A DNA stretch of 64,000 nucleotides from a virus (taxonomy: Duplodnaviria > Caudoviricetes). The notes beneath the pieces were generated by a model, which saw nothing but the letters and a program-made list of their open reading frames with translations, did no database searches and was not told the DNA's origin. This document shows, in pieces, positions 1 through 48,780 of the stretch (position 1 is its first letter; the number at the start of each line of letters is the position of its first letter). The DNA is taken from positions 18,930-82,929 of the IMG/VR virus record IMGVR_UViG_2565956830_000005. One strand, written 5' to 3'. The position numbers and the translations under genes were made by a program.

Positions 1-1631
1 CAGCCCTCCTGCCCCTCTTCCTCGTCGTGGTTCTTGTTACGGCCGACCAGGTCGTAGCCGGTCAGCCCCGTGCCGGCGGTGATGCCCGGCGCGGGCGCTC
101 CGGCGTCCTTGGCCAACTGCGCGGGCCCCTGGGCGATTTGCCGCGCCTGAGTCTGGTAGGCGTCCTCCGCCGCGCGCGCGGCTGCCGCGTCGGCGGTTCC
201 CGGTGCGGGCACGGTGGCGGGCGCCGCCACGAACGGCTGCGGGAGCGCGGGCTGGTCCTCGGCCGGGCCGAAGGTCTCCGGGTCGATACGTCCGGCGACA
301 CCCTGGATGGACAGCAGCGGGACCGGCCCGAGCCGGGAAGTCGAGTAGAACCGGGGCGTGGGCCGGTGCGGGTCCCCCGGCAAGCCGAGGAGTTTCTCGC
401 GGCCCTCGTCGGGGCTGGCCATACCGGTATCGATGTAGACCTGCCACGCCTGGGCGAGTTCGAGGCGGTCCTCCTGCTCCTGCCCGGTGTCGAACGCGAA
501 CTGCAGGGGCAGCTCGAGGTCGTGGCGCAGAAAGTAGCTGAGGGCGCCCTGGATGTAGGAGATGAGGGGCAGGTCTCCGACGCGGTGCTGGACATCGGCC
601 TGCGTCTCCCCGGAGGACCGGTTGACGGACTCTGTGAATCCAAGGTCGCTCGGCACGATGTGGTACGCCGCGCAGGTCTTCCGCATCAGGAACAGGGAGA
701 AAGCGTCGGAAAACTCTTTCTCGTTCGACCACTCGATCTTCCCGCCGCCCGGCATCCACCGGATCTGGCTCTGGATCGACTGGTCGCCCAGCATGAGGGC
801 GTCCCACTGCACCTGGAACTGATCGATCTGCTCCGGGGTCCAGCCCTCCGGGGCACTCGCGAAGGCACGCGGGATGTTGCCGTCGGTGAACCGCTGAAGG
901 AAGTACTGCTGGAACCTCAAGTCCGTGTTCGCGTTGAGGAGGATGCTCTCCAAGGGCGCGGTGCCGTACGGGGAGCTGGTGCGCGGCCTAAACGGCTCAT
1001 AGATGAGGTCGGAGCGGGTCAGCCAGTTCCACGGCAGACCGTTGACGTACTGGACATAGGCCTCGGCCGGGTCCTCCGGGCTGTTGCCCCAGTAGTCCAG
1101 GAGCGGCGCGATGGTGGTCCCGTCCACGGTCCGCAGCCCGATCGCGCGGCCGCCGCGGTTCCGCAGCCGGTACAGGCAGCCGGCGTCGAACGCCAACACG
1201 TCGTACAACCACTTGGCCAGCCACGTCGCGAACGGCGTCTGCCGGTCCGGCTTCTCGAGAACCTTCATCCCGAGGTCGATCGCCGCCTGCGCGTCCCCCC
1301 TGAATCCGGGCGCGGGGACGAGGGACCACTCCAGCGCACGGATCGAGTCGATCCGGTGCCAGATGCACATCTGCGCCACGTCGTAGGCGTCGACGAGGCC
1401 CTTGAGCGTCTCGAAGCTGACGCGCTCGTGGGACTTCGGGCGGGCGCTGATGTTGTAGCCGGTGACGAAATCATGGGTTCGCGGGGTGCGGGAGTAGCCG
1501 TCGTAGGGGCCGATCGGGGTGCCGGGTGAGAAGGGGCTCGCCGGGGTCATCTGAGCCGCTGCTTCGGCGGCCTGTGTCTCGGCCGGTACGCGGTTGGCGA
1601 AGACCTTGGCGAGGGTGGATCGGAGACCCAT
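1..1631 (-). CDS. Phage portal protein (HK97-like), 3' end runs off the window
   Basis: Absent from the ORF track because it has no stop in the window. Manual translation from ATG 1631 (RBS GGAGG) gives MGLRSTLAKVF...LKGLVDAYDVAQMCIWHRIDSIRALEW...ESILLNANTDLRFQQYFLQRFTDGNIP...CAAYHIVPSDLGFTESVNRSSGETQ. Lies directly downstream of terL. Confidence 0.88.
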   Translation of the reverse strand, partial: MGLRSTLAKVFANRVPAETQAAEAAAQMTPASPFSPGTPIGPYDGYSRTPRTHDFVTGYNISARPKSHERVSFETLKGLVDAYDVAQMCIWHRIDSIRALEWSLVPAPGFRGDAQAAIDLGMKVLEKPDRQTPFATWLAKWLYDVLAFDAGCLYRLRNRGGRAIGLRTVDGTTIAPLLDYWGNSPEDPAEAYVQYVNGLPWNWLTRSDLIYEPFRPRTSSPYGTAPLESILLNANTDLRFQQYFLQRFTDGNIPRAFASAPEGWTPEQIDQFQVQWDALMLGDQSIQSQIRWMPGGGKIEWSNEKEFSDAFSLFLMRKTCAAYHIVPSDLGFTESVNRSSGETQADVQHRVGDLPLISYIQGALSYFLRHDLELPLQFAFDTGQEQEDRLELAQAWQVYIDTGMASPDEGREKLLGLPGDPHRPTPRFYSTSRLGPVPLLSIQGVAGRIDPETFGPAEDQPALPQPFVAAPATVPAPGTADAAAARAAEDAYQTQARQIAQGPAQLAKDAGAPAPGITAGTGLTGYDLVGRNKNHDEEEGQEG

Positions 1632-24295: not shown

Positions 24296-26293
24296 TCAGG
24301 TAGGGCATGGCACGGCCAGTTCGGGGCGCGGCAGCGTGTAGCCCCCGGCAATGAGGTCCGCGGCTTCCTTACGGCGCTCGGAGGCGGTGGAGACGGACAC
24401 TCCGAGAGCACCGGCGATGACGTCCAGCTGGATCGCGTCTGGGTCCCCGGCACCGTCGGTGAGGATCATGCGGGCGACCCTGCGGGCGTCCCGCTCGCGC
24501 GGGGTGAGGCGGGCGTGGTCTTCCATTTCGACCGCGAGAGCCTCGGCTTCGGCAACCCGGCGGCGCATTCCGACCGCGTCGAGCCGGACCGTCTCCGCGG
24601 CGGCCGCTTCCTCGGCCGCACGCCGTTCCGCGAGGGCCGCTTCCTCGCTGATCTTGGCCCTACGGCGGCGCGCTTCGGCGTTGGCCAGCTCCGCTTCGAC
24701 CGCACGACGGTCCGTTTCGGCAGCAGCCGCTCGCGTTCCGGCCGCGCGCCTTTCCATTTCGGCCGCAGCCTCCAGACGCCGGCTGTTCTCGACCGATTGG
24801 TCGGCGGCCTGACGCTGTTCGGCGGCGAGCTGCTGCTCCGTTCCGAGGGCACGCTGGCGCGTTCCGAGGGCAGCGGCCCGCGCATCGGCAGCTTCCTTCT
24901 CCCGTCGGGCGGCCTCGACCTCGAGGCGCTCCGTTTCGGCCAGCGCTACGGCGGTCTCCTCGTCGGCCAGGGCCGCCATGTGGCGGTCGGCAGCAGCCGC
25001 GGCCTCGAGCTGCTCGGCTTGCTGCGCCTTGGTCGCGGCGGCGAGCCGGTCCTCGGCGGCCTGGAGCTGGGCTGCGGCGGCGGTCGCCGACTCGAGAGCC
25101 TCCGCCTCCTGGACAGCGACGCGTTCCTCGGCTTCGGCCACAGCGGTGGCCTTGGCGTACGCGGAGCGGGCAGCGACCGAAGCGACCGACTTCCGGGCAT
25201 CGAGCCCTTCCTCGGCCTCGGCAACCTCGGCCTGCTTCGCGAGGAGCAGGATCCTGGCGTCCGCGGTCCGGATCTGGGCGGCGAGCGCCTCCTGCTCCTG
25301 GCGCTCCTCCTGCTCCCGCTCGCGCTGCTGCTCGGCGGCGCGGGCCTGCTCGGGGATGGCGAGGGCCTCGTCGACGGTCAGCCCGTACGGCGCCATGATC
25401 ATGGGGAGGCGGGCCTCCATCGGGGCGCTCTTCCAGCCCTTGGGGTACTGCTTCCCCTTGGGGTAGATGCGGTCGAGTGCAGCCCGGTAGATGAGCTGGT
25501 CACGGCGCCTGTCTACCGCCTCGTCGTACGACCGGATCCCCAGGAGGACCATCCGCCGGTGGAGGCTGAAGGAGCCGGCCGGATCGAGGATCCAGCGCTC
25601 GAGAGGGATGCCGTCGCGGCGGGTGCCGGCGGCGACGTCCTCGGCGCGGGTGACCTGGATGATGACCCGCCGGGCAGCCTCGACCGCGGTCACGAACATG
25701 ACCGGGATGACCGCGTGCATCCCGACACCGACAGGGTCCGCGCTCAGCGGGCGGCCACCGGACGCGGCGTTGAAGACGATCGTCGCGACCGTGAAGCCGT
25801 GCGCTGCGAGGCGGAGGATGGGCCAGCGGATCCGGCGGTGGGTGAGGACGAGGTCCAGGGCGTAGAGGACGACGATGCCGACGTCGACACCGACCGGGAA
25901 GACCTGCGCGAACTCGCCAAAATGGTGCGCCTCGCCCAGCTTCACGAGGGACCGGTAGGAGCCGGTGAAGCCGATCCCGGCGAGGACCAGGCCGCCGATG
26001 ACCGCGAACACGTTGAGGCCCCTGCGGGCTGCTCCCGAAACAGCGTCCGACGTACCCGGAACGCCGGGGGCCGTCGTCGGAACGGCACCCGGCGCCTCCG
26101 GAACGGCCACCTCTTTCCCACGCTCGACGCGCGGTTGGAAGCGCGCGACGGGGACCTTGGGGCGGCCGTGGCCGGGCGCGGCCGGAACGGATTCCGGCGC
26201 GCTCGGAACGCTGCGGTGCGGGGTCGGAACGGCCGCCTGCGTCCTCGGAACAGAGCCGCCGCGCCAGAGTGTGAGGCGTGTGAGGAGAGTCAT
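24296..26293 (-). CDS. DUF2637 membrane protein with long coiled coil and C-terminal HTH (Spd-like)
   Basis: GIGFTGSYRSL..LGEAHHF...FPVGVDVGIV...ATIVFNAA...MHAVIP; Ala/Glu heptads; IQLDVIAGALGVSVSTASERRKEA. Confidence 0.85.
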   Translation of the reverse strand: MTLLTRLTLWRGGSVPRTQAAVPTPHRSVPSAPESVPAAPGHGRPKVPVARFQPRVERGKEVAVPEAPGAVPTTAPGVPGTSDAVSGAARRGLNVFAVIGGLVLAGIGFTGSYRSLVKLGEAHHFGEFAQVFPVGVDVGIVVLYALDLVLTHRRIRWPILRLAAHGFTVATIVFNAASGGRPLSADPVGVGMHAVIPVMFVTAVEAARRVIIQVTRAEDVAAGTRRDGIPLERWILDPAGSFSLHRRMVLLGIRSYDEAVDRRRDQLIYRAALDRIYPKGKQYPKGWKSAPMEARLPMIMAPYGLTVDEALAIPEQARAAEQQREREQEERQEQEALAAQIRTADARILLLAKQAEVAEAEEGLDARKSVASVAARSAYAKATAVAEAEERVAVQEAEALESATAAAAQLQAAEDRLAAATKAQQAEQLEAAAAADRHMAALADEETAVALAETERLEVEAARREKEAADARAAALGTRQRALGTEQQLAAEQRQAADQSVENSRRLEAAAEMERRAAGTRAAAAETDRRAVEAELANAEARRRRAKISEEAALAERRAAEEAAAAETVRLDAVGMRRRVAEAEALAVEMEDHARLTPRERDARRVARMILTDGAGDPDAIQLDVIAGALGVSVSTASERRKEAADLIAGGYTLPRPELAVPCPT
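26036..26251. repeat. CGGAAC motif array with 21-bp phasing inside the DUF2637 gene
   Basis: GGAAC at 26058, 26079, 26100, 26184, 26205, 26226, 26247; variant GAAAC at 26037. Confidence 0.8.
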
Positions 26294-27607: not shown

Positions 27608-28392
27608 AGGCCACCGTCCTGGACCTCGTCGACGTCGCCACGCTCGTCCGCAACATCGGCGTCCCGCGCCTCGCCCATCTGCAGGACGTACTCGTCGGAC
27701 GCACCGTGCCCATACCGGGCGTCGAGGTCGTCGGCCTCCAGGCAGATCGGGTGTCGGGCCTCAGTGGGTTCATCCCACGGGGCAGTCAGCTCGATGCCGA
27801 AGATGGTCCGCAACTCGTCCTGCGACACCAGGTCCTGCGAGATGAGAGCCGGGGTACGGCCACGCTCCCATCGCTGCCCGGACCGGAGCCGGACAACGAG
27901 CGCCGCGCGCTGCCCCTCCGACTCGGCGACCCGAGCTCGCGCCTCGCGCGCCTTCTCACACATCGCCATGCCCCGCTGGACCGCCTGCTTGTGCAGGCCG
28001 TCCAGCTCGGTAACCCGGTTGATGAGCCACTCCACAGCAGGAGTCAGCGTTTCCCCCAACTCCATGGGGACCTTGCTCGCCTCCCCGTTCGGCGAGAGCG
28101 CGCCGCGCATGTTCAGCGCATCGTTCTGAAGGGCTACGAGACGGGCATGGCGCCGATCGCGCTGCGCCTCCAGGCGGCGGATCTCCGCCACCAGCGCGGG
28201 CACGTCGTCCCCCGCCAGCCGGTTCCACTCGTCAGCAGTGGCGTCGCCGCCGAACTCGTACAGATGGGCCCCACGCTCCTCAGCCTCCGCGAGACGCCCT
28301 GCCGACAGCGCCTGCGGCTCCTGGCCCACGGGCATCGGCAGCGCACCCAACGCGAGCACTGCGGCCTCAGTGGTCTTGAGTGGTTCGGTCAC
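27604..28392 (-). CDS. Hypothetical coiled-coil protein
   Basis: ALGALPMPVG, DVPALVAEIRRLE; coupled overlaps. Confidence 0.7.
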   Translation of the reverse strand: MTEPLKTTEAAVLALGALPMPVGQEPQALSAGRLAEAEERGAHLYEFGGDATADEWNRLAGDDVPALVAEIRRLEAQRDRRHARLVALQNDALNMRGALSPNGEASKVPMELGETLTPAVEWLINRVTELDGLHKQAVQRGMAMCEKAREARARVAESEGQRAALVVRLRSGQRWERGRTPALISQDLVSQDELRTIFGIELTAPWDEPTEARHPICLEADDLDARYGHGASDEYVLQMGEARDADVADERGDVDEVQDGGL

Positions 28393-28973
28393 AGTCCACC
28401 GTCCAGTTCGGCACGGTGGTCGGCTGCGGCGAGTTCGTCACCGGCGCGGGCGAGCGCGTTGGAGACGCACATCGGGGTGCAGTACCAGCTCGGTTGGTCC
28501 CCGGTGCCGGCGACTTCCAGGCGCGCCCACGCGAAGAGGGCCGGGTCGCTGGCGTCGCAGTCATCGGTGGTGCCGCACCCCGGGGTGGAGCACTTCGCGT
28601 ACGGGTCGCGGAGCTCCATGTCCAGGAGGGAGGCGAGCTTGATCCGCTGTTCGCCCTTGACGACCAGGTCGACGGTGACGCCCTGGAAGGCGTGGCTGCA
28701 GTCGATGACGGCTTTCTGGGTGAGGTCGCTGCCGTCCGGGTACGACACGCTCCCGGCCCAGTCCAGGGTGATCGTGAGCGGGTCGGAGTCCAGCGCCCAT
28801 TCGCGCAGGAGATCAACGGCGTTGCCGCGGCCCGGGTCGCACTCGTAGTCCTGGGGCAGCGCGGTGATCTTGTCGGCGGCGTGGGTGAGGATGCCGAACC
28901 TGACCGCGGCTGCGATCGTCCGCCGCATCTCCTGCTGAGGTTCGGTGAGTTCGGTGTCGGGTGTGTGGTTCAC
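28389..28973 (-). CDS. Hypothetical protein
   Basis: 194 aa, GGGAG RBS, C-terminal Cys cluster. Confidence 0.7.
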   Translation of the reverse strand: MNHTPDTELTEPQQEMRRTIAAAVRFGILTHAADKITALPQDYECDPGRGNAVDLLREWALDSDPLTITLDWAGSVSYPDGSDLTQKAVIDCSHAFQGVTVDLVVKGEQRIKLASLLDMELRDPYAKCSTPGCGTTDDCDASDPALFAWARLEVAGTGDQPSWYCTPMCVSNALARAGDELAAADHRAELDGGL

Positions 28974-28997
28974 AGGCGTGGTGCTCCCTGGTGAGGG

Positions 28998-29354
28998 TCA
29001 GATGTGGTCGCCGACGCGGGTACGGCTCCACCGGGTGTGGGTCACGCACAGGGGCCGGCCACTGGACAGCCGCAGCTCCCAGCAGGCGGCGGCGTGGTGC
29101 GAGACGTGGCGGGTGCCGGCGCGGACGTCGCGGCACGTCGTGGTGGTGCGGGTCTTCTTGCCGCTGCGCCGGGTCTTCGTCTTGCACACGTGCCGGTAGC
29201 GGGTCTGCGTCGTCCAGGTCGTGCGCGCCGCCTGGTAGGTCTTGGCAACGACTTGGCCGTGCACGGGGCGGCTCACCGTGGTGGTGCCGCAGGCGGTGAG
29301 CGCGAGGGCGACGGCGGTGAGGACTGCGCCGAGCGCGGCGAGGGTGCGGCTCAT
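28998..29354 (-). CDS. Basic lipoprotein
   Basis: MSRTLAALGAVLTAVALALTAC lipobox; ATGA overlap with the terD stop. Confidence 0.75.
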   Translation of the reverse strand: MSRTLAALGAVLTAVALALTACGTTTVSRPVHGQVVAKTYQAARTTWTTQTRYRHVCKTKTRRSGKKTRTTTTCRDVRAGTRHVSHHAAACWELRLSSGRPLCVTHTRWSRTRVGDHI

Positions 29355-29929
29355 GCCGAGTACTGCTTCGCGAGCTGGAGGAGCTGGTCGCGGCTGCCGG
29401 CGTTGTCGAGTTCGTTGACGGCGGTGATCGCCCAGTCGCTGCCGGTGCGCTGCGCGCGGGCCATGACGCACGCGTTGTTGTGGGAGTCGATGTCCGGCAT
29501 GTATTCGCCGAGCTTCCGGCCGCCCGGGGCGCCGTCGTAGACGTTGAGGGTGATGCCCTCGATGTTGGCGAAGCTGACGCCGGGCTTGAAGGCGGAGACG
29601 ATGAAGACGAGGGTGTTGATGCTGGCGGGGAGGTCGGTCAGGCGGGCGATGATGGTCTCGTCGTCTCCGGTGGCCTTCCCGGTGCGGTTGTCGCCGAGGG
29701 TGACCAGGGAGCCGTTGTCGAAGGCGTCCTCGTTGTCGAACCAGCACAGCCGCTTCGGGCGCCCGTCCTCCAGGGCGACGGCGACCAGGTCGAGGTCGGT
29801 ACCGACCGCACGGCGCAGGCGCCCCATGAGGCCCTTCTGTCCTCCGCCGGACGTCTTCCACGCGACTCCGACCCTCAGGACGGTGACGCCGGTGAGGCCT
29901 TCGGTCTGGTTCTTCAGCAGGCTGAGCAC
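29351..29929 (-). CDS. terD: TerD/TerZ-family protein
   Basis: LRVGVAW, DLDL, GDNRTGKATGDDETI, LVFIVS motifs; GTG with GGAG RBS. Confidence 0.88.
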   Translation of the reverse strand: MLSLLKNQTEGLTGVTVLRVGVAWKTSGGGQKGLMGRLRRAVGTDLDLVAVALEDGRPKRLCWFDNEDAFDNGSLVTLGDNRTGKATGDDETIIARLTDLPASINTLVFIVSAFKPGVSFANIEGITLNVYDGAPGGRKLGEYMPDIDSHNNACVMARAQRTGSDWAITAVNELDNAGSRDQLLQLAKQYSA

Positions 29930-29994
29930 GTTGTTCTCCGAACGGTTGGTGAGTACGGCGCTGGGTGCGCCTGGTGGAGGGGGCGGGGTGGGGG

Positions 29995-31368
29995 TCAGCG
30001 GCGTAGGACGGCGAGTTGGAGCGTGTCCTCGGTCCGGGGGTCGAGCAGCTGCGCGGTGGGCAGCGCAGCCGTGGCGTCGGACTCGGGCACTGGTACGGGC
30101 TCCAGGCGCGCCGTGTCGGCGGTGTGCTCGCCACGGGCGGTGCCGGTCCCGGTGGCGCGGCGGGTGCCGGTGCCGCGGAGGCGGATGCGGATCATGGACA
30201 GCGGGATCACGACGAAGGCCGTGGCGCCTCCAGCCCACAGGAGCGGGTTGCCGAGGAGGCCGCCCGCGAGGCTGACGAGGGTTCCCGCGGCCGCGCCGAC
30301 GAGCGCCAGGCCCCGGCGGCGTTCCCGCGTCATGGGGCTGATGACGGTCTTGCGCCCGCTGCGGCCGGTCCACGCCGTGTAGTGGCGTCCCAGCAGCCAC
30401 TCGCGGAGCATCGACCGCGTGTACAGGTACTTGTTGTAGAAGTTCAGCAGCGTGTACGGCACGAAGCCGAGCGCGGCTTTCTTCCAGCCGACGACGCGGG
30501 AGACCAGGTACATGGTCAGCGCGGTGTGGCCGGCGAACCAGTAGCCCATGTACCGGAACATCGACAGGTGCTGCCAGGTCGCCAGGTTGTAGACCACGAC
30601 GACGGCCCACCACCACAACGTGACCAGGTCGAACATCGCGGTACCGACAGTGAGGAGGGAGCGCCAGTTGAACATCAGGCGCCGGTAGCGGGCGACGTTC
30701 TGGAAGTAGCCGGCCGCCCACCGGGGCATCTGCGCCGTGTACTCGGCCCAGGTCTCCGGGTCGATCGTGAGCGTCAGGGCATCCGCGGTGTACCAGGCCT
30801 TGTAGCCGCCTTCGTGGAGCTTCCAGGTGATGTCCATGTCGGCGCTGATGAGCCCGTTGGGAAACCCGCCGACCGCACGGACGACGTCCGTGCGGAAGGC
30901 GTACGAGGCGCCGGTGAGGACCTGGAGGCGGCCGACCTGGCGCTGGCACAGCCGCCACCACTGGCTGCCGAGGCTGTACGCGAACCGCCGCGCTTCGATG
31001 AAGAAGCCGGTGTCCTGCATGGGAAGGATCGACGAGCAGGTGGCGTCGTAGCCGCGCTCGATGTCGGCGACCATCAGCGGGATGCAGTCGGGCTCCGGCT
31101 TCGAATCGCCGTCGAACCCCACGATCACATCCGCCGTGATGTACGGCAGCGCATGGTTCTGGTTCGCCGCCTTGTCCGCGAACCTCGTCTCCAAAACCAG
31201 CGACGCACCCGCCTCACGGGCAACCTGCGCGGTGCGGTCCGTGCAGGAGTCCGCGACCACGATCAGCTGGGCGACTGGGTAGGGCTGGTCCAGGCATGCC
31301 CGGACCAGCTCCCCGATCGTCGCCTCTTCCTGGTGGGCGGGAATGAGGACGGCGATCGTCAGACTCAG
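29995..31368 (-). CDS. Membrane-embedded processive GT2 glycosyltransferase
   Basis: LIPAHQEE, ADSCTD, KA, FDGDS, SADMD and QMPRW motifs plus C-terminal TMs; start at CTG 31368 (after AGGAG) or GTG 31512. Confidence 0.9.
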   Translation of the reverse strand: MSLTIAVLIPAHQEEATIGELVRACLDQPYPVAQLIVVADSCTDRTAQVAREAGASLVLETRFADKAANQNHALPYITADVIVGFDGDSKPEPDCIPLMVADIERGYDATCSSILPMQDTGFFIEARRFAYSLGSQWWRLCQRQVGRLQVLTGASYAFRTDVVRAVGGFPNGLISADMDITWKLHEGGYKAWYTADALTLTIDPETWAEYTAQMPRWAAGYFQNVARYRRLMFNWRSLLTVGTAMFDLVTLWWWAVVVVYNLATWQHLSMFRYMGYWFAGHTALTMYLVSRVVGWKKAALGFVPYTLLNFYNKYLYTRSMLREWLLGRHYTAWTGRSGRKTVISPMTRERRRGLALVGAAAGTLVSLAGGLLGNPLLWAGGATAFVVIPLSMIRIRLRGTGTRRATGTGTARGEHTADTARLEPVPVPESDATAALPTAQLLDPRTEDTLQLAVLRR

Positions 31369-31481
31369 CCCCGGCCTCTCCTTCCGAGGAAGCGCAGGGC
31401 GCTCCCGGTGGCCCCCATCGCCAGGGACACCCCGGTCAGGAGCATCGCTCCGAACCCGGTGTGAGCCAGTCCGTTGTACAT
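31365..31481 (-). CDS. 38-aa LAXTG sortase-signal micropeptide (not in ORF track)
   Basis: AGGAGGA RBS; MYNG-LAHTG-FGAMLLTGVSLAMGATGSAL-RFLGRRGRG. Confidence 0.75.
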   Translation of the reverse strand: MYNGLAHTGFGAMLLTGVSLAMGATGSALRFLGRRGRG

Positions 31482-31508
31482 GTGAGTTCCTCCTATGAGT
31501 CACGGCCG

Positions 31509-32771
31509 TCACAGCCGCTCGATGTGCGAGGCGACAGGCATGACGCCCCGCGTGTCCAGCACGAAGTTCGCCTGGTCGGCGACGCGCTGGAGGTCAAAGG
31601 CCGAGTGCGCGGTGAGCAGCACGACCGCGTCGAAGTGCCCGCAGTTCAAACCGCTGGCGACGGCGAGCGGGATCTCGCAGAGAACGTCGAGGTCTTCCTT
31701 GGGGAAGAACGGGTCAACGGCGACGACGTAGGCGCCCGCCTCCCGCAGGAGCTCGACGACCTCGGCAGCCGGCGACTGCCGCATGTCAGCGGTGTCCGCC
31801 TTGTACGCCTGCCCCAGGGCGAGGATCCGCGCCCCCTTCAACGCCTGCCCGCGCACGTTCAACGCGTCCTGGAGGCGCCGGGCCACGTACTCGGGCTGCG
31901 ACTCGTTGATGTCCTGCGCAAGCTCGACAAGGCGAAACGGCTGCCCGTGCGCAGTGCGCAGGTGGTGCGCCAGGTAGACCGGGTCGACCGGCAGGCAGTG
32001 CCCACCTACCCCCGGGCCGGGCACGAACTGCATGAACCCGAACGGCTTCGTGCCAGCGAGCCCGAGAGTGCGCCAGACGTCCACACCCAACGTGTGCGCC
32101 ATGCGCGACAGTTCGTTGACGAGGGCGATGTTGACGTGCCGGAAGGTGTTCTCGAAAACCTTCGCCAGCTCCGCCTCCTCCAGCGACCCGGCGACGACGA
32201 TGTTCTGCGTGATCCCGGTGTAGAACTTGTCGACCTGGTCCAGGCAGCCAGCGGTGAGCCCGGAGACGATCTTCGGGGTGTTCGTGAACCGCCACTCCTC
32301 GTTGCCCGGGTCGATGCGCTCCGGGCTGAACCCGACGTGGAAGTCCTCCCCGGCCTTCCAGCCGGTGGCCTCCTCCAGGATCGGGACCAGAACGTCGCGG
32401 GTCGTACCCGGGTGGGTGGTCGATTCCAGGATCACGGTGGCGTCGGCCTTGAGACGCGCGCCGAGAACCTCGGCGGCCTCCCGGACGTAACTCAGGTCGG
32501 GCTGCCGATCCTTGAGCGGCGTCGGCACCGCGATGACCGCGACGTCGAAGTCCTCGATCCGGGTCTCACTGCGCGTCGGCTGGTACCGCCCCGACTCCAG
32601 AGCAGCCGCGAGAGTGTCGTCGGAGACGTCCTCGACGTACGAGGACCCGAAGTGCAGCCGCTCATACCGGTGTTGGTCCGGCTCGAAGCCGACAACCTGA
32701 TGGCCGGCCTCAACGGCAGCCATGGCCAGGGGAAGGCCGACATAGCCCTGCCCCATGACAACGAGTTTCAC
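31509..32771 (-). CDS. UDP-glucose/GDP-mannose dehydrogenase family (UDP-HexNAc dehydrogenase type)
   Basis: GQGYVGLPLA, VPTP, LESTTHPGTT, FSPERIDPGN, KVFENTFRHVNIALVNE, GPGVGGHCLPVDP, AYKADTADMRQSP. Confidence 0.95.
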   Translation of the reverse strand: MKLVVMGQGYVGLPLAMAAVEAGHQVVGFEPDQHRYERLHFGSSYVEDVSDDTLAAALESGRYQPTRSETRIEDFDVAVIAVPTPLKDRQPDLSYVREAAEVLGARLKADATVILESTTHPGTTRDVLVPILEEATGWKAGEDFHVGFSPERIDPGNEEWRFTNTPKIVSGLTAGCLDQVDKFYTGITQNIVVAGSLEEAELAKVFENTFRHVNIALVNELSRMAHTLGVDVWRTLGLAGTKPFGFMQFVPGPGVGGHCLPVDPVYLAHHLRTAHGQPFRLVELAQDINESQPEYVARRLQDALNVRGQALKGARILALGQAYKADTADMRQSPAAEVVELLREAGAYVVAVDPFFPKEDLDVLCEIPLAVASGLNCGHFDAVVLLTAHSAFDLQRVADQANFVLDTRGVMPVASHIERL

Positions 32772-32867
32772 GTGAAGGATTCCCTTCCAGGGACGTGCAT
32801 TCAGAAGTGGCTTGGAGCCGGGCCCGCGGCTGGGGGAGGCACACGGGCCCGGCGTATTTGGGGGCGG

Positions 32868-33053
32868 CTACCAGGGCCAGCGCGGCTTCTTGCCGCCACC
32901 ACCCCTGAGCTCCGCGCGGTGCCGGGCACGGCGGTCGGCTGCCTCACGGGCCTCGCGCTGTTGCTTGCGGGCGGCCTTGTCCCGGTCCGCAATGCCCGGA
33001 TTCGACGCGTACGGGTTGGCGGCCTTCAACCGCCGCTCAAGCCAGCCCATCAA
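32868..33053 (-). CDS. Small basic hypothetical protein
   Basis: 61 aa, overlaps the upstream stop. Confidence 0.55.
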   Translation of the reverse strand: MMGWLERRLKAANPYASNPGIADRDKAARKQQREAREAADRRARHRAELRGGGGKKPRWPW

Positions 33054-33433
33054 GCGGCCGCACGCATCAACGGCAACTGCTCACGGGAGCCGAACTTCGC
33101 CAGGCCCTCATACCAGTCGGTGAACACCTCGACCGGGCCCACACCGTCCACCAGAACCGTGACGGTGATCTCCTCCTCCACCACCACACTGCTGTCGCAG
33201 TAGGTCCGCTGGACGGGGCGGATGGTCACCGTGCCGCCGAGCCGCTCGTACAGGCTGTTCAGCTCAAGCTGCGACCAGACGGACACACGGGTGAGGGACT
33301 CACCCAACTCAGGAACGGGCTTCCAATGGCCGGCGAACCCGAGGGCCGTCCGGACCTTGGCGAGCAGCTGCTCGTCCGGGACTGCGGGCGGTGGGAGTTC
33401 GACGAGGTTGAGAGGGTCGGTAGTCTCGGGCAT
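33050..33433 (-). CDS. Hypothetical protein, first gene of the leftward operon
   Basis: ATG 33433 with AAAGGG RBS. Confidence 0.7.
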   Translation of the reverse strand: MPETTDPLNLVELPPPAVPDEQLLAKVRTALGFAGHWKPVPELGESLTRVSVWSQLELNSLYERLGGTVTIRPVQRTYCDSSVVVEEEITVTVLVDGVGPVEVFTDWYEGLAKFGSREQLPLMRAAA

Positions 33434-33464
33434 TGCCTGCCCTTTCGTCGCAGTCAGGGTGGGT

Positions 33465-33510
33465 GCCCTCGTCCCATACGGCGTTCCAGCGCCGGGACGA
33501 GGGCCTTTTT
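33465..33510. promoter_or_regulatory. Leader stem-loop
   Basis: GCCCTCGTCCC...GGCGTTCCAGCGCC...GGGACGAGGGC followed by CTTTTT on the plus strand. Confidence 0.5.
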
Positions 33511-33522
33511 GCAGAGCAGCCA

Positions 33523-33579
33523 GCGGGCTACTTGCGGCTGACTGTATGGGACCCATACAGTCAGCCGCAAGTAGCCCGC
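33523..33579. promoter_or_regulatory. Perfect 57-bp palindrome containing a symmetric divergent promoter and operator
   Basis: 28-bp arms GCGGGCTACTTGCGGCTGACTGTATGGG around one A; TTGCGG-18 nt-TACAGT reads on both strands. Confidence 0.8.
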
Positions 33580-33599
33580 CTGAATTGGAAGGCGCGGGC

Positions 33600-33950
33600 G
33601 TGACTCACGAAGACGAGGTGCTGCGGGTGTCAGAAGCCCTCAACGCTGTGGAGCGCATCCCTGACCCCGAGGAGCGCGTCAAGGCGATGAGCCAGGTCAT
33701 GGCCGACCAGGTGAAACGCAACGGGGATTGGGCCAAGCAGCGACGCGAGATGGTCCAGAAACTCAAGGGCGAAGGGCTTTCGATCCGGAAGATCGCGGCC
33801 CGGGTCGGTACGTCACCCAGCACGGTGCAGAGCATCCTGAGCGGCTTCACCGACTCGGGCAAGCACCGGCCGCCGACGAAGCCGGACGATCCTGCACCCC
33901 CAGCCGACGCAGCCCAAGGAACAGACAATGGCGCCGGCCCAGGCACCTGA
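33600..33950 (+). CDS. HTH transcriptional regulator
   Basis: EGLSIRKIAARVGTSPSTVQSIL; divergent from the leftward operon. Confidence 0.8.
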   Translation: MTHEDEVLRVSEALNAVERIPDPEERVKAMSQVMADQVKRNGDWAKQRREMVQKLKGEGLSIRKIAARVGTSPSTVQSILSGFTDSGKHRPPTKPDDPAPPADAAQGTDNGAGPGT

Positions 33951-38217: not shown

Positions 38218-39018
38218 TCACTGTTCCTGGGGGTCTGGGGTGGTGGGGCTCAACGTCGGTAGCGGCGGGACTACTTGGGCGAGCCAGCTGGTGGGTTCTG
38301 TCGTGAAGTGGGGTGCTGGGCTGCTCTCCCACCACGACCTGGTGGCGAGGACCGTGTTTTCGGTGCTGGTGCGTTTGTCGGTGTACGTCGTCTCCCGCTC
38401 GCCGAGGTGGCGCACGGTGACGCGTCCGCGTTTGCAGCCGTCGGGGTAGTCGCTCCAGTTCACGCCTTTCTCGGACCACAGCAGTTCCTGCATGCCGGCG
38501 CTGTTCACGCCGTGGAGGCGTTGGTGGGAGAAGTGGGCCTGGGCGGCCATGCTGATGCTGTTGCTGACGGCGTCGCGTTGCCGTCCGATGAAGTAGTTCG
38601 CGACCTCGACCGGGTCGTTGATGGTGAAGACGCGGGCGTCGAAGAGTCCTCGTCGGCCGGGGCGGCGTTCGTTGAGGACGGCGGTCGCGAGGGATGCGGC
38701 GATGCTGAGCTGTTTCGCGATGACGCCGCCGAACCAGGGCTGCGTGGTGGGGGTGTCGAAGTCGGTGATCAGGATGCTGATTTCGTCGGACTGGCTGTAA
38801 GCGAAGCGGGCGCCGGCGATCTCGGTGCAGAGGGCTTCGGCGACGGCGTCCATGTCGGCCATGAACGCCTCGTCGAACGGCCGCTGCGCGCCGGCCAGGT
38901 AGGAGTGGAAGGCGCGGCCGTCGACGCGGAGTACGGCGTGTGTGCGGCGGGGCAGCACAGTCCGATAGGGGGCCTCGTACTGCTTCATGCGCTCGGCGAG
39001 CGGGGCGTTGTCGCTCAT
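38218..39018 (-). CDS. thg1: Thg1-like tRNA(His) guanylyltransferase / 3'-5' polymerase
   Basis: RMKQYE, LRVDGRAFH, RPFD, YSQSDEISI, FDARVF, RQRDAVSNS. Confidence 0.92.
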   Translation of the reverse strand: MSDNAPLAERMKQYEAPYRTVLPRRTHAVLRVDGRAFHSYLAGAQRPFDEAFMADMDAVAEALCTEIAGARFAYSQSDEISILITDFDTPTTQPWFGGVIAKQLSIAASLATAVLNERRPGRRGLFDARVFTINDPVEVANYFIGRQRDAVSNSISMAAQAHFSHQRLHGVNSAGMQELLWSEKGVNWSDYPDGCKRGRVTVRHLGERETTYTDKRTSTENTVLATRSWWESSPAPHFTTEPTSWLAQVVPPLPTLSPTTPDPQEQ

Positions 39019-43451: not shown

Positions 43452-43861
43452 TGCTGACCTCCGTCGTCGATCGTGCGGGCTGTAGCGAGCGCGGCTTCGT
43501 CGCGGTGGCGAGCCTTCGCCTGGAGGTGGTCGTAGTTGACCGCGCGGGCCAGGACGAGAGCGGGTTCGTCGGCGCTCACTTCGGTGCCGTCGAGGGCATC
43601 GGCGGTCTGGTCGAGGAGCTTGGCGAGGGCGCGGCCGACGCCGGGGTGCATGGCGCAGATGTACTGGGCATCGGTCGGCTCGTGGTGGGGGTCGGTGGTG
43701 GTGCTGGCGACGCGGTACGGGACGCCGATGTTGCTGATGGTCTGCGGGTAGTGGCGTGCCTGTTCGTTGACGATGTACCAGGGGCCGCGGTTGTCGCCGA
43801 GCGCCTGGACGAGGTCGTCCAGCTTGGCTGCCGCGGCACGGATCTCTTCGGTAGGTGTCAT
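43448..43861 (-). CDS. Hypothetical protein (GPW...DAxYIxAMHP family)
   Basis: Paralogous to the C-terminus of 43858-44778. Confidence 0.7.
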   Translation of the reverse strand: MTPTEEIRAAAAKLDDLVQALGDNRGPWYIVNEQARHYPQTISNIGVPYRVASTTTDPHHEPTDAQYICAMHPGVGRALAKLLDQTADALDGTEVSADEPALVLARAVNYDHLQAKARHRDEAALATARTIDDGGQQ

Positions 43862-44778
43862 CGCTGCTCGCCGCCCAGGACGATGCGCGCGAGGGCGATG
43901 GTGGGGTCGATGACGGGATGGCCGGGCGCGCCGCTGCCGTGTTCCGTGTGGTCGGCGGTCTCCTCCAAGAGCTTGGCCAGCGCGCGCCCGACGCCGGGGT
44001 GCATGGCCGCGATGTAGTCGGCGTTCGCTCCGTTACTCATGGGCTCGTCGACGACGTACACGGGCGCCCGGTCCTCTGCGCCGGGGCCGTCGTGGAGGAG
44101 GCGGTCGCCTCGGTCCATGGAGAGCCAGGGGCCGGGTGTGAGTTCGGGGTCGGCGAGGCGCGCTCGCAACTTGCGGGCTGCCGTGCGGAGTTCGTCGGCA
44201 GGGCTGACCGGGTGCGGGGTGGCGAAGTCGCGCGCCTTGATCTTTGCGCGGCGGCCGTCGGGGTGATGCCACACGATGCCCTCGTACGGGCGGGTGAGGA
44301 GCCACTCGCGGAGGCCGTCGAAGTCGCGCGGGGCGGCCTCCACGTCGATGCGCTCGGACAGGGGCGCCCATCCGTGGGGCATGAGGAGGTGTGCGTCGAA
44401 GCCGTCCGCGTTGCGGTTGATTTTCGGGCCGAGGAGTTCGTAGGTGCCGGGTGCGACGGCCGTGCTGTTGGTCAGCGCTTCGGCGTGGAGCTTGGCGAAT
44501 GAGGACTGGGCCATTGGCTCCCAGCCGACGAGTTTCCCGGTCGCCTCGTCGTGCTGCGCGGTGACGAAGGAGTGCGGGATGTCCTTGCCGGGTTTGACTT
44601 CGCGGCGGGCCCACCAGTTGCCGTGCTCGTCGAGCATGGTGCAGGTGCCGTCCCACTTGCGGGTTGCGATGCCTTCGCCTGCGGTCACCCATTCGCAGCC
44701 CGGGGTGACGTCGGGCAGGACGGTACGGGGGCGGCCCAGGCGGAGGTCGCGGGCGAAGAGGGTCGGGATTTTGCGCAT
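43858..44778 (-). CDS. DUF5565/RLIG1-like RNA ligase fused to a phage domain
   Basis: MRKIPTLF, ATRKWDGT (KxDG adenylation motif), GTYELLGPKIN, EGIVWHHPDGRRAKIK. Confidence 0.8.
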   Translation of the reverse strand: MRKIPTLFARDLRLGRPRTVLPDVTPGCEWVTAGEGIATRKWDGTCTMLDEHGNWWARREVKPGKDIPHSFVTAQHDEATGKLVGWEPMAQSSFAKLHAEALTNSTAVAPGTYELLGPKINRNADGFDAHLLMPHGWAPLSERIDVEAAPRDFDGLREWLLTRPYEGIVWHHPDGRRAKIKARDFATPHPVSPADELRTAARKLRARLADPELTPGPWLSMDRGDRLLHDGPGAEDRAPVYVVDEPMSNGANADYIAAMHPGVGRALAKLLEETADHTEHGSGAPGHPVIDPTIALARIVLGGEQR

Positions 44779-45098
44779 CAGCTGGTGCCTTCTGTGGGTG
44801 GGATGAGGGTGAGGTCGGCGCCCCACATGTCGCGTGGGCTGGGGTGGTACTCGATGTGCGCGATCTCGTACCGGCTGCGTGGCCCGCCGTAGTCGATGAG
44901 GATGTGGTCGCCGCGTTCGATGCCGGGGCCCCAGCCGGAGACGCGGAGTTGCTGGAGGTCGTCGGGTTCGTGGTGGACGACGTAGTCGCGGCCCCAGCCG
45001 AGGTGATCGCGCGTGTAGTCGTGGACGCGCGGCTTCCGCCCTGGTGCGGGAGAGGGCTCTGGCGGGGCGGTCTCGCGGCGGCGCAAGAAGTTCAGCAT
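44778..45098 (-). CDS. Hypothetical protein
   Basis: HDYT...WG...GWGPGI..GD...PRDMW. Confidence 0.7.
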   Translation of the reverse strand: MLNFLRRRETAPPEPSPAPGRKPRVHDYTRDHLGWGRDYVVHHEPDDLQQLRVSGWGPGIERGDHILIDYGGPRSRYEIAHIEYHPSPRDMWGADLTLIPPTEGTS

Positions 45099-46603: not shown

Positions 46604-48118
46604 TCACGCTGCCTCCTCCTGGTCTGCGGCCTGTTGCGGCTCGATGTCGACAGTCGATCGCGCTGATGGCGGAGCAGGCTCTTGGCCAGATCCGGAACAT
46701 GGGTCCTCGCCGGCGCGGTGTCGGCGCATCACTCCGGCGGCCGTCAGCGACCGCCTCTTCTCGCATCCCGGGCACACCGCCTTGGGCGTCGCCGGGCGCG
46801 GGGACAGCACCAGGCGGCAGTCAGGACTGTCGGCGCGGGCGCGCGCCGCACGGCATCTGTCGCAGCGGCATTTCCAGTCGCGGAATCCGCTGAGGGTGCC
46901 GTGGAGGCGTTCGGGCATCAGGCGGCGCAGGACGGCGAGTTCTTCCTGCGCCCCGCGATACCAGTACCGGCAGGGGCCACACCGGGGGACCTTCTCCCGG
47001 CGGTGGCGCTGCCACCCCCTGCGGGTGCCGCAGTCATCGGGCCACGTCGGGGTGTCCTGGCCAGGAGGCAACGCTTGCCGGGATGCGGCCGACCCCAGCT
47101 TGCCGATCTTTCGGCGGTTGATCGCAGCGGCGGCTTCGTCATTGCTGGTGTCGAGGTAGACGCTGGTCACGGAGATGTCGGAGTGCCGCAGGACGTGCGC
47201 GACGATTGCCAGGTCGGCTTTGGCCTCGCGCACGAGGAGCGTTCCGGTGGTGTGCCGCAGGCCGTGAGGGACGTAGTGCCGCCCGAGTGCGGCCTTCGCG
47301 CAGCGCCCCACGATGTGTCCGACGCTGGAGGTGTTGAAGCGGTGCCGCTCCGCGGTGAGGAGGAGCGCCCGCTCGTCGCCCTTGAAGAGTTTCCCGTGCC
47401 GGTCGCGCCTGTCCGGCAGGGCGCCGGGTTCGGGGCGCCATTGGTCGATGTAGGCATTGATGAGGGTGGCGCACTCGTCGGTGACCGGGACGGTGGCGGC
47501 CTTGCGCCCCTTGCCGCAGCGGATCTGCACCACCCAATGCCCGGCGGGGTCTTTCTCAATGTCGTCTACGTCGAGATCGCGGATGTCGGCGTTGCGGAGC
47601 CCGGATTCCCCGGCGAGGCGGACGGCGATCTCGTCGCGGACCCAGCAGCCTTGGTCGCCGTTGAATGAGCCGTGGCCGACGCGGGCGGCGGCGAGCATCG
47701 CGTCGAGTTCGTGGCGGGCGAGTGCGGCGCGTTCCGGTCGTGTGGTGCGGGTGGGCATGGGTGCTCTGGGGACGTCGCGCATCGGGTTTTCGCGCAGCCA
47801 CCGGTTAGATTCCGCGTGGGCCATGAGCCCGTTGATGGATTTGCGGCAGAACCGGATGGTGTCGGGGCTGCTCGGCTTGTCGCCCCGGCCGCGGGCCTTG
47901 TACGCGGTGAGCCAGCCGCTGATTTCTGCCGCTTCGATGCTGTCGACGGTGCGGGTGGGGCCCAGGTGGTCGATGGCGCGGCGAGCGTAGGCGAGGTAGC
48001 CGCGGGTGGTGTCGGGGCTCATCTGGTCGGCGTCGACGAGGGATCGCAGGCGGATCCCCCAGGACTGCCAGGCGGTCTCCAGGGTGACGGTGAGGTCGAG
48101 TTCGCGGGGTGCGGCCAT
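46604..48118 (-). CDS. Tyrosine recombinase (XerC/D-like) with C-terminal Cys/His modules
   Basis: GLRNAD, GKGRK, HGLRH, LRHSDISVTSVY: catalytic R-K-H-R-H-Y all present. Confidence 0.9.
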   Translation of the reverse strand: MAAPRELDLTVTLETAWQSWGIRLRSLVDADQMSPDTTRGYLAYARRAIDHLGPTRTVDSIEAAEISGWLTAYKARGRGDKPSSPDTIRFCRKSINGLMAHAESNRWLRENPMRDVPRAPMPTRTTRPERAALARHELDAMLAAARVGHGSFNGDQGCWVRDEIAVRLAGESGLRNADIRDLDVDDIEKDPAGHWVVQIRCGKGRKAATVPVTDECATLINAYIDQWRPEPGALPDRRDRHGKLFKGDERALLLTAERHRFNTSSVGHIVGRCAKAALGRHYVPHGLRHTTGTLLVREAKADLAIVAHVLRHSDISVTSVYLDTSNDEAAAAINRRKIGKLGSAASRQALPPGQDTPTWPDDCGTRRGWQRHRREKVPRCGPCRYWYRGAQEELAVLRRLMPERLHGTLSGFRDWKCRCDRCRAARARADSPDCRLVLSPRPATPKAVCPGCEKRRSLTAAGVMRRHRAGEDPCSGSGQEPAPPSARSTVDIEPQQAADQEEAA

Positions 48119-48780
48119 CAGGCGGCGTCCTTCCTGTCGTTCTTGGCACGGGCGCGTGCGCGGCGGCGGAGATTGGCCACTGCCGATTCGCCGACGCGCT
48201 CGGTTCCGGCGGTGCTTCCGGCCCGGCGGTCGCAGCCCCAGTGCGACGACGGCGCCTCCCCCTCGTGCCACAGCTCACGGAACCCGTCGCGGCCCCGGCC
48301 GAGGAGGGACCGGAACGTCTGGTCCTTGATGCCCAGTAGCCGGGCCGCATTGGCGTAGTCGCCCGACGCGGCAAGGGCCGCAAGGGCTTCCCGCTGGCGC
48401 GGGGAGAGCGCCTCAAGGATCTGCGCGAGCGCCAGCCGCTCGACCAGGCTGGCCTCCGGACTGGGGGTAGCGCGGCCCGCCCATTCCCAGTACATGGCGT
48501 GCTTGAGGCCGTTGTTGGTGCCGTCGCGGCGTGCGCCGTGGTGCCGCATCGTGGCCTTGACGTCCTCGGAAAGAGCCTGGCGCCCGGCCTCCAGCAGGTC
48601 TACGCGTCGCGGTTTCTCTTCGGCGCTGCACAGGTGCTCGACGATGCCGTGCCACGCTGCGGCGTACAGGTCTTCGCGGTCGCCGGCGGGCCACCAGGCG
48701 CGGTTGTTGGAGACGACCGTGCGGGCGAGACGGTCGAGGTCTGCGAGGGTCCAGCCCCAGCGGATGCCGTCAGCGGTCAT
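48118..48780 (-). CDS. Sigma-70-like protein (region 4 HTH)
   Basis: DREDLYAAAWHGIVE...SPE...LSPRQREAL...YANAARLLGI...FRSLLGRGR. Confidence 0.65.
   Translation of the reverse strand: MTADGIRWGWTLADLDRLARTVVSNNRAWWPAGDREDLYAAAWHGIVEHLCSAEEKPRRVDLLEAGRQALSEDVKATMRHHGARRDGTNNGLKHAMYWEWAGRATPSPEASLVERLALAQILEALSPRQREALAALAASGDYANAARLLGIKDQTFRSLLGRGRDGFRELWHEGEAPSSHWGCDRRAGSTAGTERVGESAVANLRRRARARAKNDRKDAA

Follow-up and report, generated by a model that had tools for sequence, protein, structure and literature searches.

A conserved micro-protein encoded ahead of a hyaluronan-synthase-like glycosyltransferase in a Streptomyces prophage-like region is probably a split-off membrane helix of the synthase

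We analysed a 64,000-nucleotide stretch of the IMG/VR virus record IMGVR_UViG_2565956830_000005 (hereafter the window), which corresponds to positions 18976-82975 of the 262,669-bp contig C144 in a genome of 11.76 Mb and 202 contigs. The window carries, in this order, a gene for a nucleotide-sugar dehydrogenase, a 38-codon open reading frame (the micro-ORF) and a gene for a membrane-embedded glycosyltransferase of family 2 (GT2). An earlier note on this DNA had proposed that the 38-residue peptide is a minimal sortase substrate that primes an acidic glycan or anchors it to the cell wall, and had named a small accessory subunit of the GT2 as the alternative. Our results support this interpretation in part: the accessory-subunit alternative is now favoured, and the sortase anchor or primer stands at lower odds. 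The micro-protein is probably a split-off N-terminal transmembrane helix subunit of the adjacent synthase that is not processed by sortase. We favour this reading because the micro-ORF and the GT2 gene were linked in 41 out of 41 testable related loci, because the GT2 lacks N-terminal helices, and because a look-alike helix is fused to the GT2 in a sister clade. What is new here is most likely a hyaluronan synthase (HAS)-like enzyme whose N-terminal channel helix is made as a separate, translationally coupled micro-protein that resembles, or is, a sorting signal.

The micro-ORF is a real, conserved gene linked to that of the GT2. The earlier note had described it as a hidden ORF with a strong ribosome-binding site, and this description held: a Shine-Dalgarno sequence precedes its ATG (Table 1), and GGAG-like sites were equally placed before the micro-ORF in most genome loci. 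GC content at third codon positions (GC3) was 33/38 (87%) in the micro-ORF frame and 425/458 in the GT2 body. Among six Streptomyces copies of the micro-ORF, the ratio of nonsynonymous to synonymous substitution rates (dN/dS) was 0.14-0.61, falling below 1 in all 15 pairs. An equivalent ORF abutted the GT2 start in all 15 testable genome loci and all 26 testable metagenome loci. The genome loci, with GT2 identities of 51-86%, came from Streptomyces, Streptosporangiaceae, Gaiellaceae, Thermoleophilia and unclassified Actinomycetota, with locus L019 duplicating L010; in the 26 metagenome loci with upstream DNA, the micro-ORF was recognised by pattern in 22 and by inspection in 4. Two more metagenome loci begin within the GT2 gene and lie outside the count, and the single IMG/VR locus is cut within the micro-ORF, leaving its C-terminal part visible. 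The amino acid sequence of the peptide was kept down to GT2 identities of 47-51%, with the motif invariant, and 0.3% of random 38-mers contained L[AP]xTG.

The peptide belongs to a larger family. A profile built from 14 peptides yielded 42 matches at E<=0.001 among 1.84 billion representative proteins; 40 of these were small proteins (34-103 aa) that share the layout of the query peptides, and the other two were unrelated repeat proteins. The family signature opens with M-Y and 1-4 variable residues; next come a pentapeptide with T-G at its end, the motif phi-G-[AS]-x-x-L-T and a hydrophobic stretch containing many small residues, and a basic tail closes it. M1, T8, G9, G11, L15 and T16 were invariant in the alignment of 14 sequences; when 41 sequences were aligned, G9 and G11 remained invariant and M1, Y2, T8, L15, T16 and A19 were at least 90% conserved. 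Conservation that reaches into the helix is what one would expect of helix packing rather than of a discarded anchor. Source databases label the members as “hypothetical,” leave them unnamed or call them “LPXTG-anchored protein.” P0140 and P0149 (34-36 aa), for example, are labelled “LPXTG-motif cell wall-anchored protein” by JGI, which would make them annotation false positives if the subunit reading is true. In 400 Actinomycetota genomes, the profile gave a strong match (57 bits) only in the window's own genome; six genomes had between them seven matches of 21-26 bits, which lie within open frames of 125-647 aa and are probably ordinary sorting signals. Within the limited set of literature and terms searched, we found no paper on the micro-protein-GT2 module.

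In most loci, the micro-ORF stop overlaps the GT2 start or is only a few bases away from it. The overlap is of the 4-nt ATGA type in L011, L018, L020, L021 and L036-37, and TGATG or CTGA elsewhere. In the window, the codon at the conserved GT2 start (31366-31368) is CTG, which overlaps the micro-ORF stop as CTGA; there is no ATG, GTG or TTG at this position, and the next canonical start lies 36 codons downstream. The GT2 genes of L007-L009 likewise have no canonical start at the conserved position. The overlap noted earlier was thus confirmed, but the start that takes part in it is not a canonical one. The GT2 Pfam domains begin directly after the micro-ORF stop, and in 48 of the 59 GT2 homologs listed, the N-terminus is no more than a few residues from the conserved VLIPAH block, at the glycosyltransferase (GT) domain. 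We propose translational coupling because the micro-ORF stop overlaps the GT2 start; the micro-protein would then be made in step with the GT2. Near its 3' end, the micro-ORF contains the Shine-Dalgarno-like sequence GGAAGGAGAGG, at which translation of the GT2 may reinitiate or be coupled to that of the micro-ORF. A promoter and terminator scan of 28300-33700 revealed nothing above shuffled sequences.

The earlier note had described the GT2 as a processive QxxRW enzyme, in agreement with what we found: a DxD motif, QMPRW, a WTGRSGRK loop, and a match to the HAS fold that includes transmembrane and interface helices. Residues D86, D88, Q213, R216 and W217 were invariant in 45 sequences. A sequence search of the PDB with the GT2 returned only BcsA (1e-8). 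An AlphaFold 2 (AF2) model of the GT2 had a predicted local distance difference test score (pLDDT) of 84 and a predicted template modelling score of 0.80, and its best structural match was the HAS of a Chlorella virus (Z 30.6, root-mean-square deviation 2.8 A over 324 residues), with model positions 1..327 aligned to HAS positions 80..452. The next matches were Xenopus HAS1 (XlHAS1; Z 27.3), an archaeal mannosyltransferase, BcsA (Z 25-26) and chitin synthases. Residue 1 of the model aligned to residue 80 of HAS, residue 96 of XlHAS1 and residue 138 or 271 of BcsA. Because these alignments begin past the N-terminal membrane helices, the solved relatives all have such helices where the GT2 has none. 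As modelled, the GT2 has a HAS-like fold without an N-terminal transmembrane helix of its own.

In class I HAS (Chlorella virus, Xenopus HAS1), two N-terminal transmembrane helices (TMHs) belong to the same chain, as described in an excerpt of PMC11750622; here, a separate 38-aa gene stands in their place. The same excerpt reports that the channel opens through a bend of the N-terminal half of TMH2 at GLYG, a conserved motif situated at the extracellular interface, that the loop between TMH1 and TMH2 forms a lid over the channel exit, and that HAS has a conserved WGTSGRR/K loop. HAS TMH2 runs from outside to inside into the GT domain, which is the topology that the positive-inside rule predicts for the micro-protein. 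The micro-ORF gene ends where the GT domain begins, and a conserved G-x-G lies at the outer end of the helix. In the mechanism that we favour, the peptide would be a single-pass membrane micro-protein, with its N-terminus outside and its basic C-terminus inside, equivalent to TMH2, which in HAS stands immediately ahead of the GT domain. It would pack against the four C-terminal helices of the GT2 and complete or gate the glycan channel, and its conserved T-G-x-G at the outer membrane edge would act as a hinge or lid, like the GLYG of HAS.

Class I HAS and the window GT2 also share a GT-A domain, a QxxRW interface helix, a WGTSGRR/K-like loop, four C-terminal TMHs and pairing with a nucleotide-sugar dehydrogenase gene; they differ in that their sequence identity is only about 15%. 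Chloroviruses encode both a synthase and a UDP-glucose dehydrogenase. We infer a physical association between the peptide and the GT2, a role in the channel, the identity of the polymer and a benefit to phage or host.

Forms in which the helix is fused to the synthase exist in a sister clade. P0106 and P0107, whose GT2s are about 36% identical to that of the window, begin with MSGLT[YC][ST]G[IV]GL[IV]VLTA.GLAVK; a basic linker leads from there to the GT domain. A search with the N-terminal part of the P0107 type returned 24 proteins at E<=0.01, P0107 included, and adding P0106 gave a clade of 25 proteins, about 36% identical to the window GT2, with the consensus start MSGLT[CY][TS]G[VI]GL..[LVF]T. 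The helix segment stands at the very start of 24 out of 25 of them; in P0195, it follows a 20-residue extension. More distant GT2s with an N-terminal transmembrane helix of their own are P0108, 109, 113, 114, 117 and 119. In the AF2 model of P0107, the alignment reached back to residues 38-49 of HAS and 59-67 of XlHAS1, and it took in the region of TMH2 along with the GLYG position (residues 63-66). The split and fused helices resemble each other in motif, length and position.

Several observations weigh against a split-off helix subunit. The window peptide, whose hydrophobic stretch is FGAMLLTGVSLAMGATGSAL, is of modest hydrophobicity: its highest Kyte-Doolittle mean over 19 residues is 1.36. 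In the P0107 model, the fused helix had a pLDDT of only 40-60. A hidden Markov model (HMM) of the micro-protein matched the fused N-termini weakly, with a best score of 7.5 bits (E 0.03, 145 sequences), although it was in register in most; because these scores are weak, homology between the split and fused helices is at the level of the motif and is not statistically shown. Nor does the subunit reading explain the L-[PA] before T-G in 26/40 relatives or the near-invariant N-terminal M-Y.

A second reading is compatible with a subunit role, but we consider it unlikely: the tip of the N-out peptide would be cut between T and G of LAHTG by a housekeeping class E sortase. The octapeptide MYNGLAHT would be passed to lipid II, the wall or the nascent glycan, and would anchor or cap the polymer, or its loss would mature or gate the synthase by lid removal. 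The C-terminal fragment would stay membrane-bound with the GT2, and the substrate of SrtE1/E2 would be MYNGLAHTGFGA. The layout that the earlier note had pointed to is indeed present: LAHTG occupies residues 5-9 of the window peptide and is directly followed by the hydrophobic stretch and the basic tail RFLGRRGRG. An excerpt of PMC5148588 describes cleavage of LAETG and LPETG peptides by SrtE1 at the T-G bond, and the class E LAXTG pattern given there fits the LAHTG of the window.

The family data give this reading further support. The earlier note had suggested a search upstream of GT2 homologs for L[AP]xTG micro-ORFs; the ORF proved to be present in every testable locus, but the motif was not. 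Among 40 family representatives, there were 18 LPxTG, 8 LAxTG (thus 26/40 L[PA]xTG), 1 MAHTG and 13 other pentapeptides, and the x residue of L[PA]xTG was H, V, N, Y, K, F or R, mostly His. L[PA]xTG was spread over at least five lineages of the GT2 tree and may therefore be ancestral. Matches to both TIGR01167 (NCBIfam) and PF00746 (Pfam) at E<=1 were found for 17 out of 41 members, and 9 out of 39 relatives scored above the TIGR01167 cut-off of 15.9 bits, with L011 below it at 14.5 bits. The JGI names of two members and the cross-matches of the family profile to the ends of long actinobacterial ORFs point in the same direction. The host genome encodes nine sortase domains, and sortase (PF04203) was present in 5 out of 5 distant module-bearing genomes. 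The fused forms are no counter-argument: they are neutral on this question because cleavage would remove only 7-8 residues (seven in the fused forms) and the helix would stay.

Other findings speak against processing by sortase. The window peptide matched neither TIGR01167 nor PF00746 at E<=1. In the 13 other representatives, as in most context-verified loci, the pentapeptide is PPHTG, HSHTG, D[IV]HTG or one like these, and two clades, one with PPHTG/HSHTG and one with D[IV]HTG, keep the module without a sortase-type pentapeptide. His at the supposedly free x position, G11, L15, T16 and A19 are all conserved. There is neither a secretion signal nor a passenger domain, with only 4-6 residues before the motif (four, MYNG, in the window; the range in relatives is 2-6). 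Because sortases are nearly universal in these taxa, their presence is uninformative; none of the nine host sortase domains is on contig C144, and the Pfam-scanned ORFs of 14 genome-derived loci (L007-L018, L020, L021) contained no sortase gene. Priming on the peptide would be topologically awkward, with the GT2 active site in the cytoplasm and the motif outside. Glycopolymers are usually attached to the wall by LytR-CpsA-Psr (LCP) ligases. In L011, a Streptomyces contig, a LytR_cpsA_psr wall-ligase gene lies directly after the intein-bearing GT2 gene (L011:6559-8100), which suggests that the polymer of this cellular version is fixed to peptidoglycan by that route.

Both roles might be combined, which we judge quite unlikely: the micro-protein would serve a HAS-like synthase as its detachable channel helix and would also be a true minimal substrate of sortase. 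Sortase attack on the outer L[PA]xTG tip at the T-G bond would then couple the product to the wall or open the channel by removing the lid, a sequence of events to which we likewise give little credence. Coupling could proceed via the octapeptide or via an acyl-enzyme resolved by an amine of the nascent glycan. If true, this would be a phage-carried, peptide-mediated way of fixing or gating a polysaccharide, unlike the LCP route.

It is very unlikely that the micro-ORF is a regulatory leader whose translation only sets the GT2 level, through coupling or reinitiation at the non-canonical CTG, with a peptide of no function. The missing canonical GT2 start in the window and in L007-L009, the overlap of the CTG with the micro-ORF stop and the Shine-Dalgarno-like sequence inside the micro-ORF would suit such a leader. 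However, the amino acid sequence itself is conserved, dN/dS is below 1, many relatives with a canonical GT2 ATG still retain the peptide, and fused forms exist.

Scarcely credible, and largely refuted by the conservation data, is the idea that the micro-ORF is a GT2 N-terminus frameshifted by a sequencing error or in a pseudogene, or a chance overlap with a GT2 that starts at GTG 31512: this GTG (31510-31512) overlaps the dehydrogenase stop as GTGA and opens a 48-codon off-frame extension of the GT2, and one gene caller chose the long form in the relative P0002, but the split layout recurs in 41/41 independent loci with differing junctions, the extension has Arg-rich translations that are unconserved between the window and L007, L009 and L010, and a stop closes its frame in L013. 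GC3 in the extension frame was 29/47 (62%), and on this third-position GC we prefer the micro-ORF plus short GT2 over the long GT2. A few long N-termini among the GT2 homologs resemble off-frame, Arg-rich translations.

The dehydrogenase scored 388.4 bits against TIGR03026 (cut-off 189.8), which places it in that family, and its best PDB matches were 4r16 (1.4e-61) and Cap5O (8.4e-55). All scores against the equivalog models (WecC, TviB, TuaD) were below their cut-offs (249/750, 225/592, 214/459 and 136/700 bits). By these sequence comparisons, the enzyme appears closest to UDP-N-acetylmannosamine and UDP-N-acetylglucosamine 6-dehydrogenases, rather than to UDP-glucose dehydrogenase, and the donor sugar is likely an N-acetyl-hexosaminuronic acid. 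The UDP-uronic acid proposed in the earlier note was therefore roughly right as to the type of sugar acid, with the N-acetylated form more likely from the PDB and TIGR comparisons. The polymer is probably not hyaluronan, because the dehydrogenase is of the UDP-N-acetyl-hexosamine type. With such a dehydrogenase, the prophage would make and export an acidic, hexosaminuronic-acid-containing polymer on the surface of the lysogen. A dehydrogenase gene lies ahead of the module in the window and in 10 out of 15 genome loci; it is of the window's type in L007-L011 and L019 (65-70% identity) and a TuaD-like UDP-glucose dehydrogenase in L014-L017.

The module resembles several other known systems in part. 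PgaC-PgaD and IcaA-IcaD, which make poly-N-acetylglucosamine, likewise combine a GT2 synthase with a small co-encoded membrane protein, and many GT2 homologs are labelled “PgaC-like” in source databases. By contrast, the window GT2 scored 92.2 bits against the PgaC_IcaA equivalog TIGR03937, far below the cut-off of 422.3, and PgaD and IcaD are encoded downstream of their GT2, whereas the micro-ORF is upstream. PgaD and IcaD are needed by PgaC and IcaA and are larger than the micro-protein, and PgaC and IcaA keep an N-terminal transmembrane helix of their own. The micro-protein shares its pentapeptide, hydrophobic segment and basic tail with LPXTG and LAXTG signals (TIGR01167, PF00746), but it is free-standing and always paired with a GT2. 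Small proteins consisting of little beyond an LAXTG signal are already a recognised class, NF058583 (NCBIfam, “LAXTG motif-containing small protein”); that is a different family, and only the relative P0149 touches the model, scoring 16.9 bits where the cut-off is 65. GtrB-like glycosyltransferases of phage serotype conversion are also prophage-borne GT2s that alter the host surface glycan, and the window GT2 matched phrog_841 (GtrB-like) weakly (E 2.5e-07). GtrB adds one sugar to a lipid carrier, whereas the window GT2 has a synthase-type channel domain and QxxRW.

Relatives of the GT2 showed further variation. In L011:4001-6238 and L020:4001-6394 (also in P0018-P0022), the GT2 carries an insertion of about 320-340 residues just before the WTGR loop. 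The insertion, which begins with Cys and ends in ..GN before an S, resembles an intein, and its copy in L020 contains a LAGLIDADG domain. GT2s of a chromosomal clade (L012, L014-L017; also P0028, P0032, P0036, P0045-47, P0056, P0059 and others) are fused at the C-terminus to glycoside hydrolase family 26 (GH26, the mannanase family). In L014-L017, the dehydrogenase gene is joined next to the GT2 by one for a GT-C (PMT_2) protein, and L014 has an extra free-standing GH26 gene. Within the GH26-fused clade, the annotated GT2 N-terminal extension of L012:3644-4019 and L031:1180-1560 is conserved (..AGLAAL..LA..) and overlaps the micro-ORF in another frame; frame plots of this clade were noisy at the overlap of micro-ORF and GT2 extension.

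All five genes named in the earlier note (dehydrogenase, 38-aa ORF, GT2, TerD and lipoprotein) were found on the minus strand where it had placed them, by sequence and Pfam (Table 1). Its inclusion of TerD and the lipoprotein in the cassette did not hold up: TerD was not found in the seven relatives compared (L007-L011, L020, L021), and the only lipoprotein homolog among them, 47% identical, was displaced, in L020. These two genes are neighbours, not conserved parts of the module. The lipoprotein had no Pfam or PHROG match. In the phage-like Streptomyces locus L020, a vWA-TerF-like gene (L020:374-1180) about 3 kb upstream of the micro-ORF/GT2 pair echoes the TerD of the window.

Table 1. Coordinates of the cassette, its signals and phage-related genes in the window
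Feature	Position	Strand	Remarks
Nucleotide-sugar 6-dehydrogenase, 420 aa	31509-32771	minus	Three UDPG_MGDP_dh Pfam domains, E 2.8e-35, 1e-26, 1.2e-17
Shine-Dalgarno sequence AGGAGG	31489-31494	minus	7 nt before the micro-ORF ATG (31481)
Micro-ORF, 38 aa, MYNGLAHTGFGAMLLTGVSLAMGATGSALRFLGRRGRG	31365-31481	minus	MY-x2-LAHTG, Gly/Ala-rich hydrophobic helix, basic tail RFLGRRGRG
Shine-Dalgarno-like GGAAGGAGAGG	31375-31385	minus	Within micro-ORF 3' end; AAGGAG core 9 nt ahead of the GT2 CTG
Membrane-embedded processive GT2, 457 aa from CTG 31368	29995-31368	minus	Pfam GT2 families; hyaluronan-synthase-like
TerD-domain protein, 192 aa, GTG start	29351-29929	minus	PF02342, 59 bits, 4.4e-16; phrog_5698, 1e-33
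Lipoprotein, 118 aa, lipobox LTAC	28998-29354	minus	ATG overlaps the TerD stop
Large terminase	1645-3321		PHROG match, 4.1e-104
Thg1-like (tRNA-His guanylyltransferase-like) protein	38218-39018 (first of the pair 38218-39018, 43858-44826)		phrog_4717, 5.8e-67
RNA ligase	43858-44826 (second of the same pair)		phrog_14301, 7.1e-46
Integrase	46604-48271		PHROG match, 8.7e-39

A PHROG scan of 71 window ORFs placed the cassette in a phage-like setting. Besides the terminase and integrase, there were matches to a virion structural protein, WhiB-like regulators, HNH and GIY-YIG endonucleases and a DNA methyltransferase. Because of the surrounding terminase, virion protein, integrase, WhiB and HNH matches, the cassette can be assigned, as far as gene content tells, to a prophage-like region of Streptomyces, in keeping with its earlier description as phage-borne. 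The GC content of the window is 66-74%, and the majority of its credible genes are on the minus strand. Phage-like genes flank the mid-window integrase, with the terminase at 1.6 kb on one side and WhiB/HNH at 56-60 kb on the other; the region may be one large prophage or two adjoining elements. The tRNA-His guanylyltransferase-like protein and the RNA ligase may form a candidate tRNA repair set; no tRNA genes were found in the window.

The nearest relatives of the cassette, L007-L010, have similar phage-like surroundings (DUF2637, HU and WhiB genes), and one of them coincides with an IMG/VR contig. Positions 24296-26293 of the window encode a DUF2637 protein of 665 aa whose long tail is rich in Ala, Glu and Arg and resembles a coiled coil; this gene also adjoins the cassette in L007-L009 (65-73% identity), and its antisense frame is fully open across the entire length. 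Among 50,697 phage records, a set that may leave out those of the window's own genome, blastn with the cassette gave one match covering 5%, and tblastn with the GT2 gave 35 records, each at <60% identity over about half the length, so that neither search returned a close relative. A strict first look at 400 sampled same-genus genomes found a close GT2 homolog (E<=1e-80) in none of them, a count that is a floor. No RNA data set was listed as containing the cassette, and the DNA data sets listed contained small portions of it only.

Taken together, these mostly unnamed micro-proteins, about 34-50 aa long, are apparently an obligate partner of a whole clade of HAS-like enzymes in Actinomycetota and their phages. 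The family points to one way in which false “cell-wall anchored protein” calls may arise. If instead the sortase reading were true, it would reveal a previously unrecognised link between sortases and glycan synthesis. If the helix completes the channel in trans, the module would offer a naturally split enzyme in which to examine how, in HAS-type synthases, the N-terminal helices gate export of the polymer and set its length. Streptomyces prophages that carry this synthase together with a sugar-acid dehydrogenase likely confer a lysogenic-conversion trait, parallel to the hyaluronan genes of chloroviruses.

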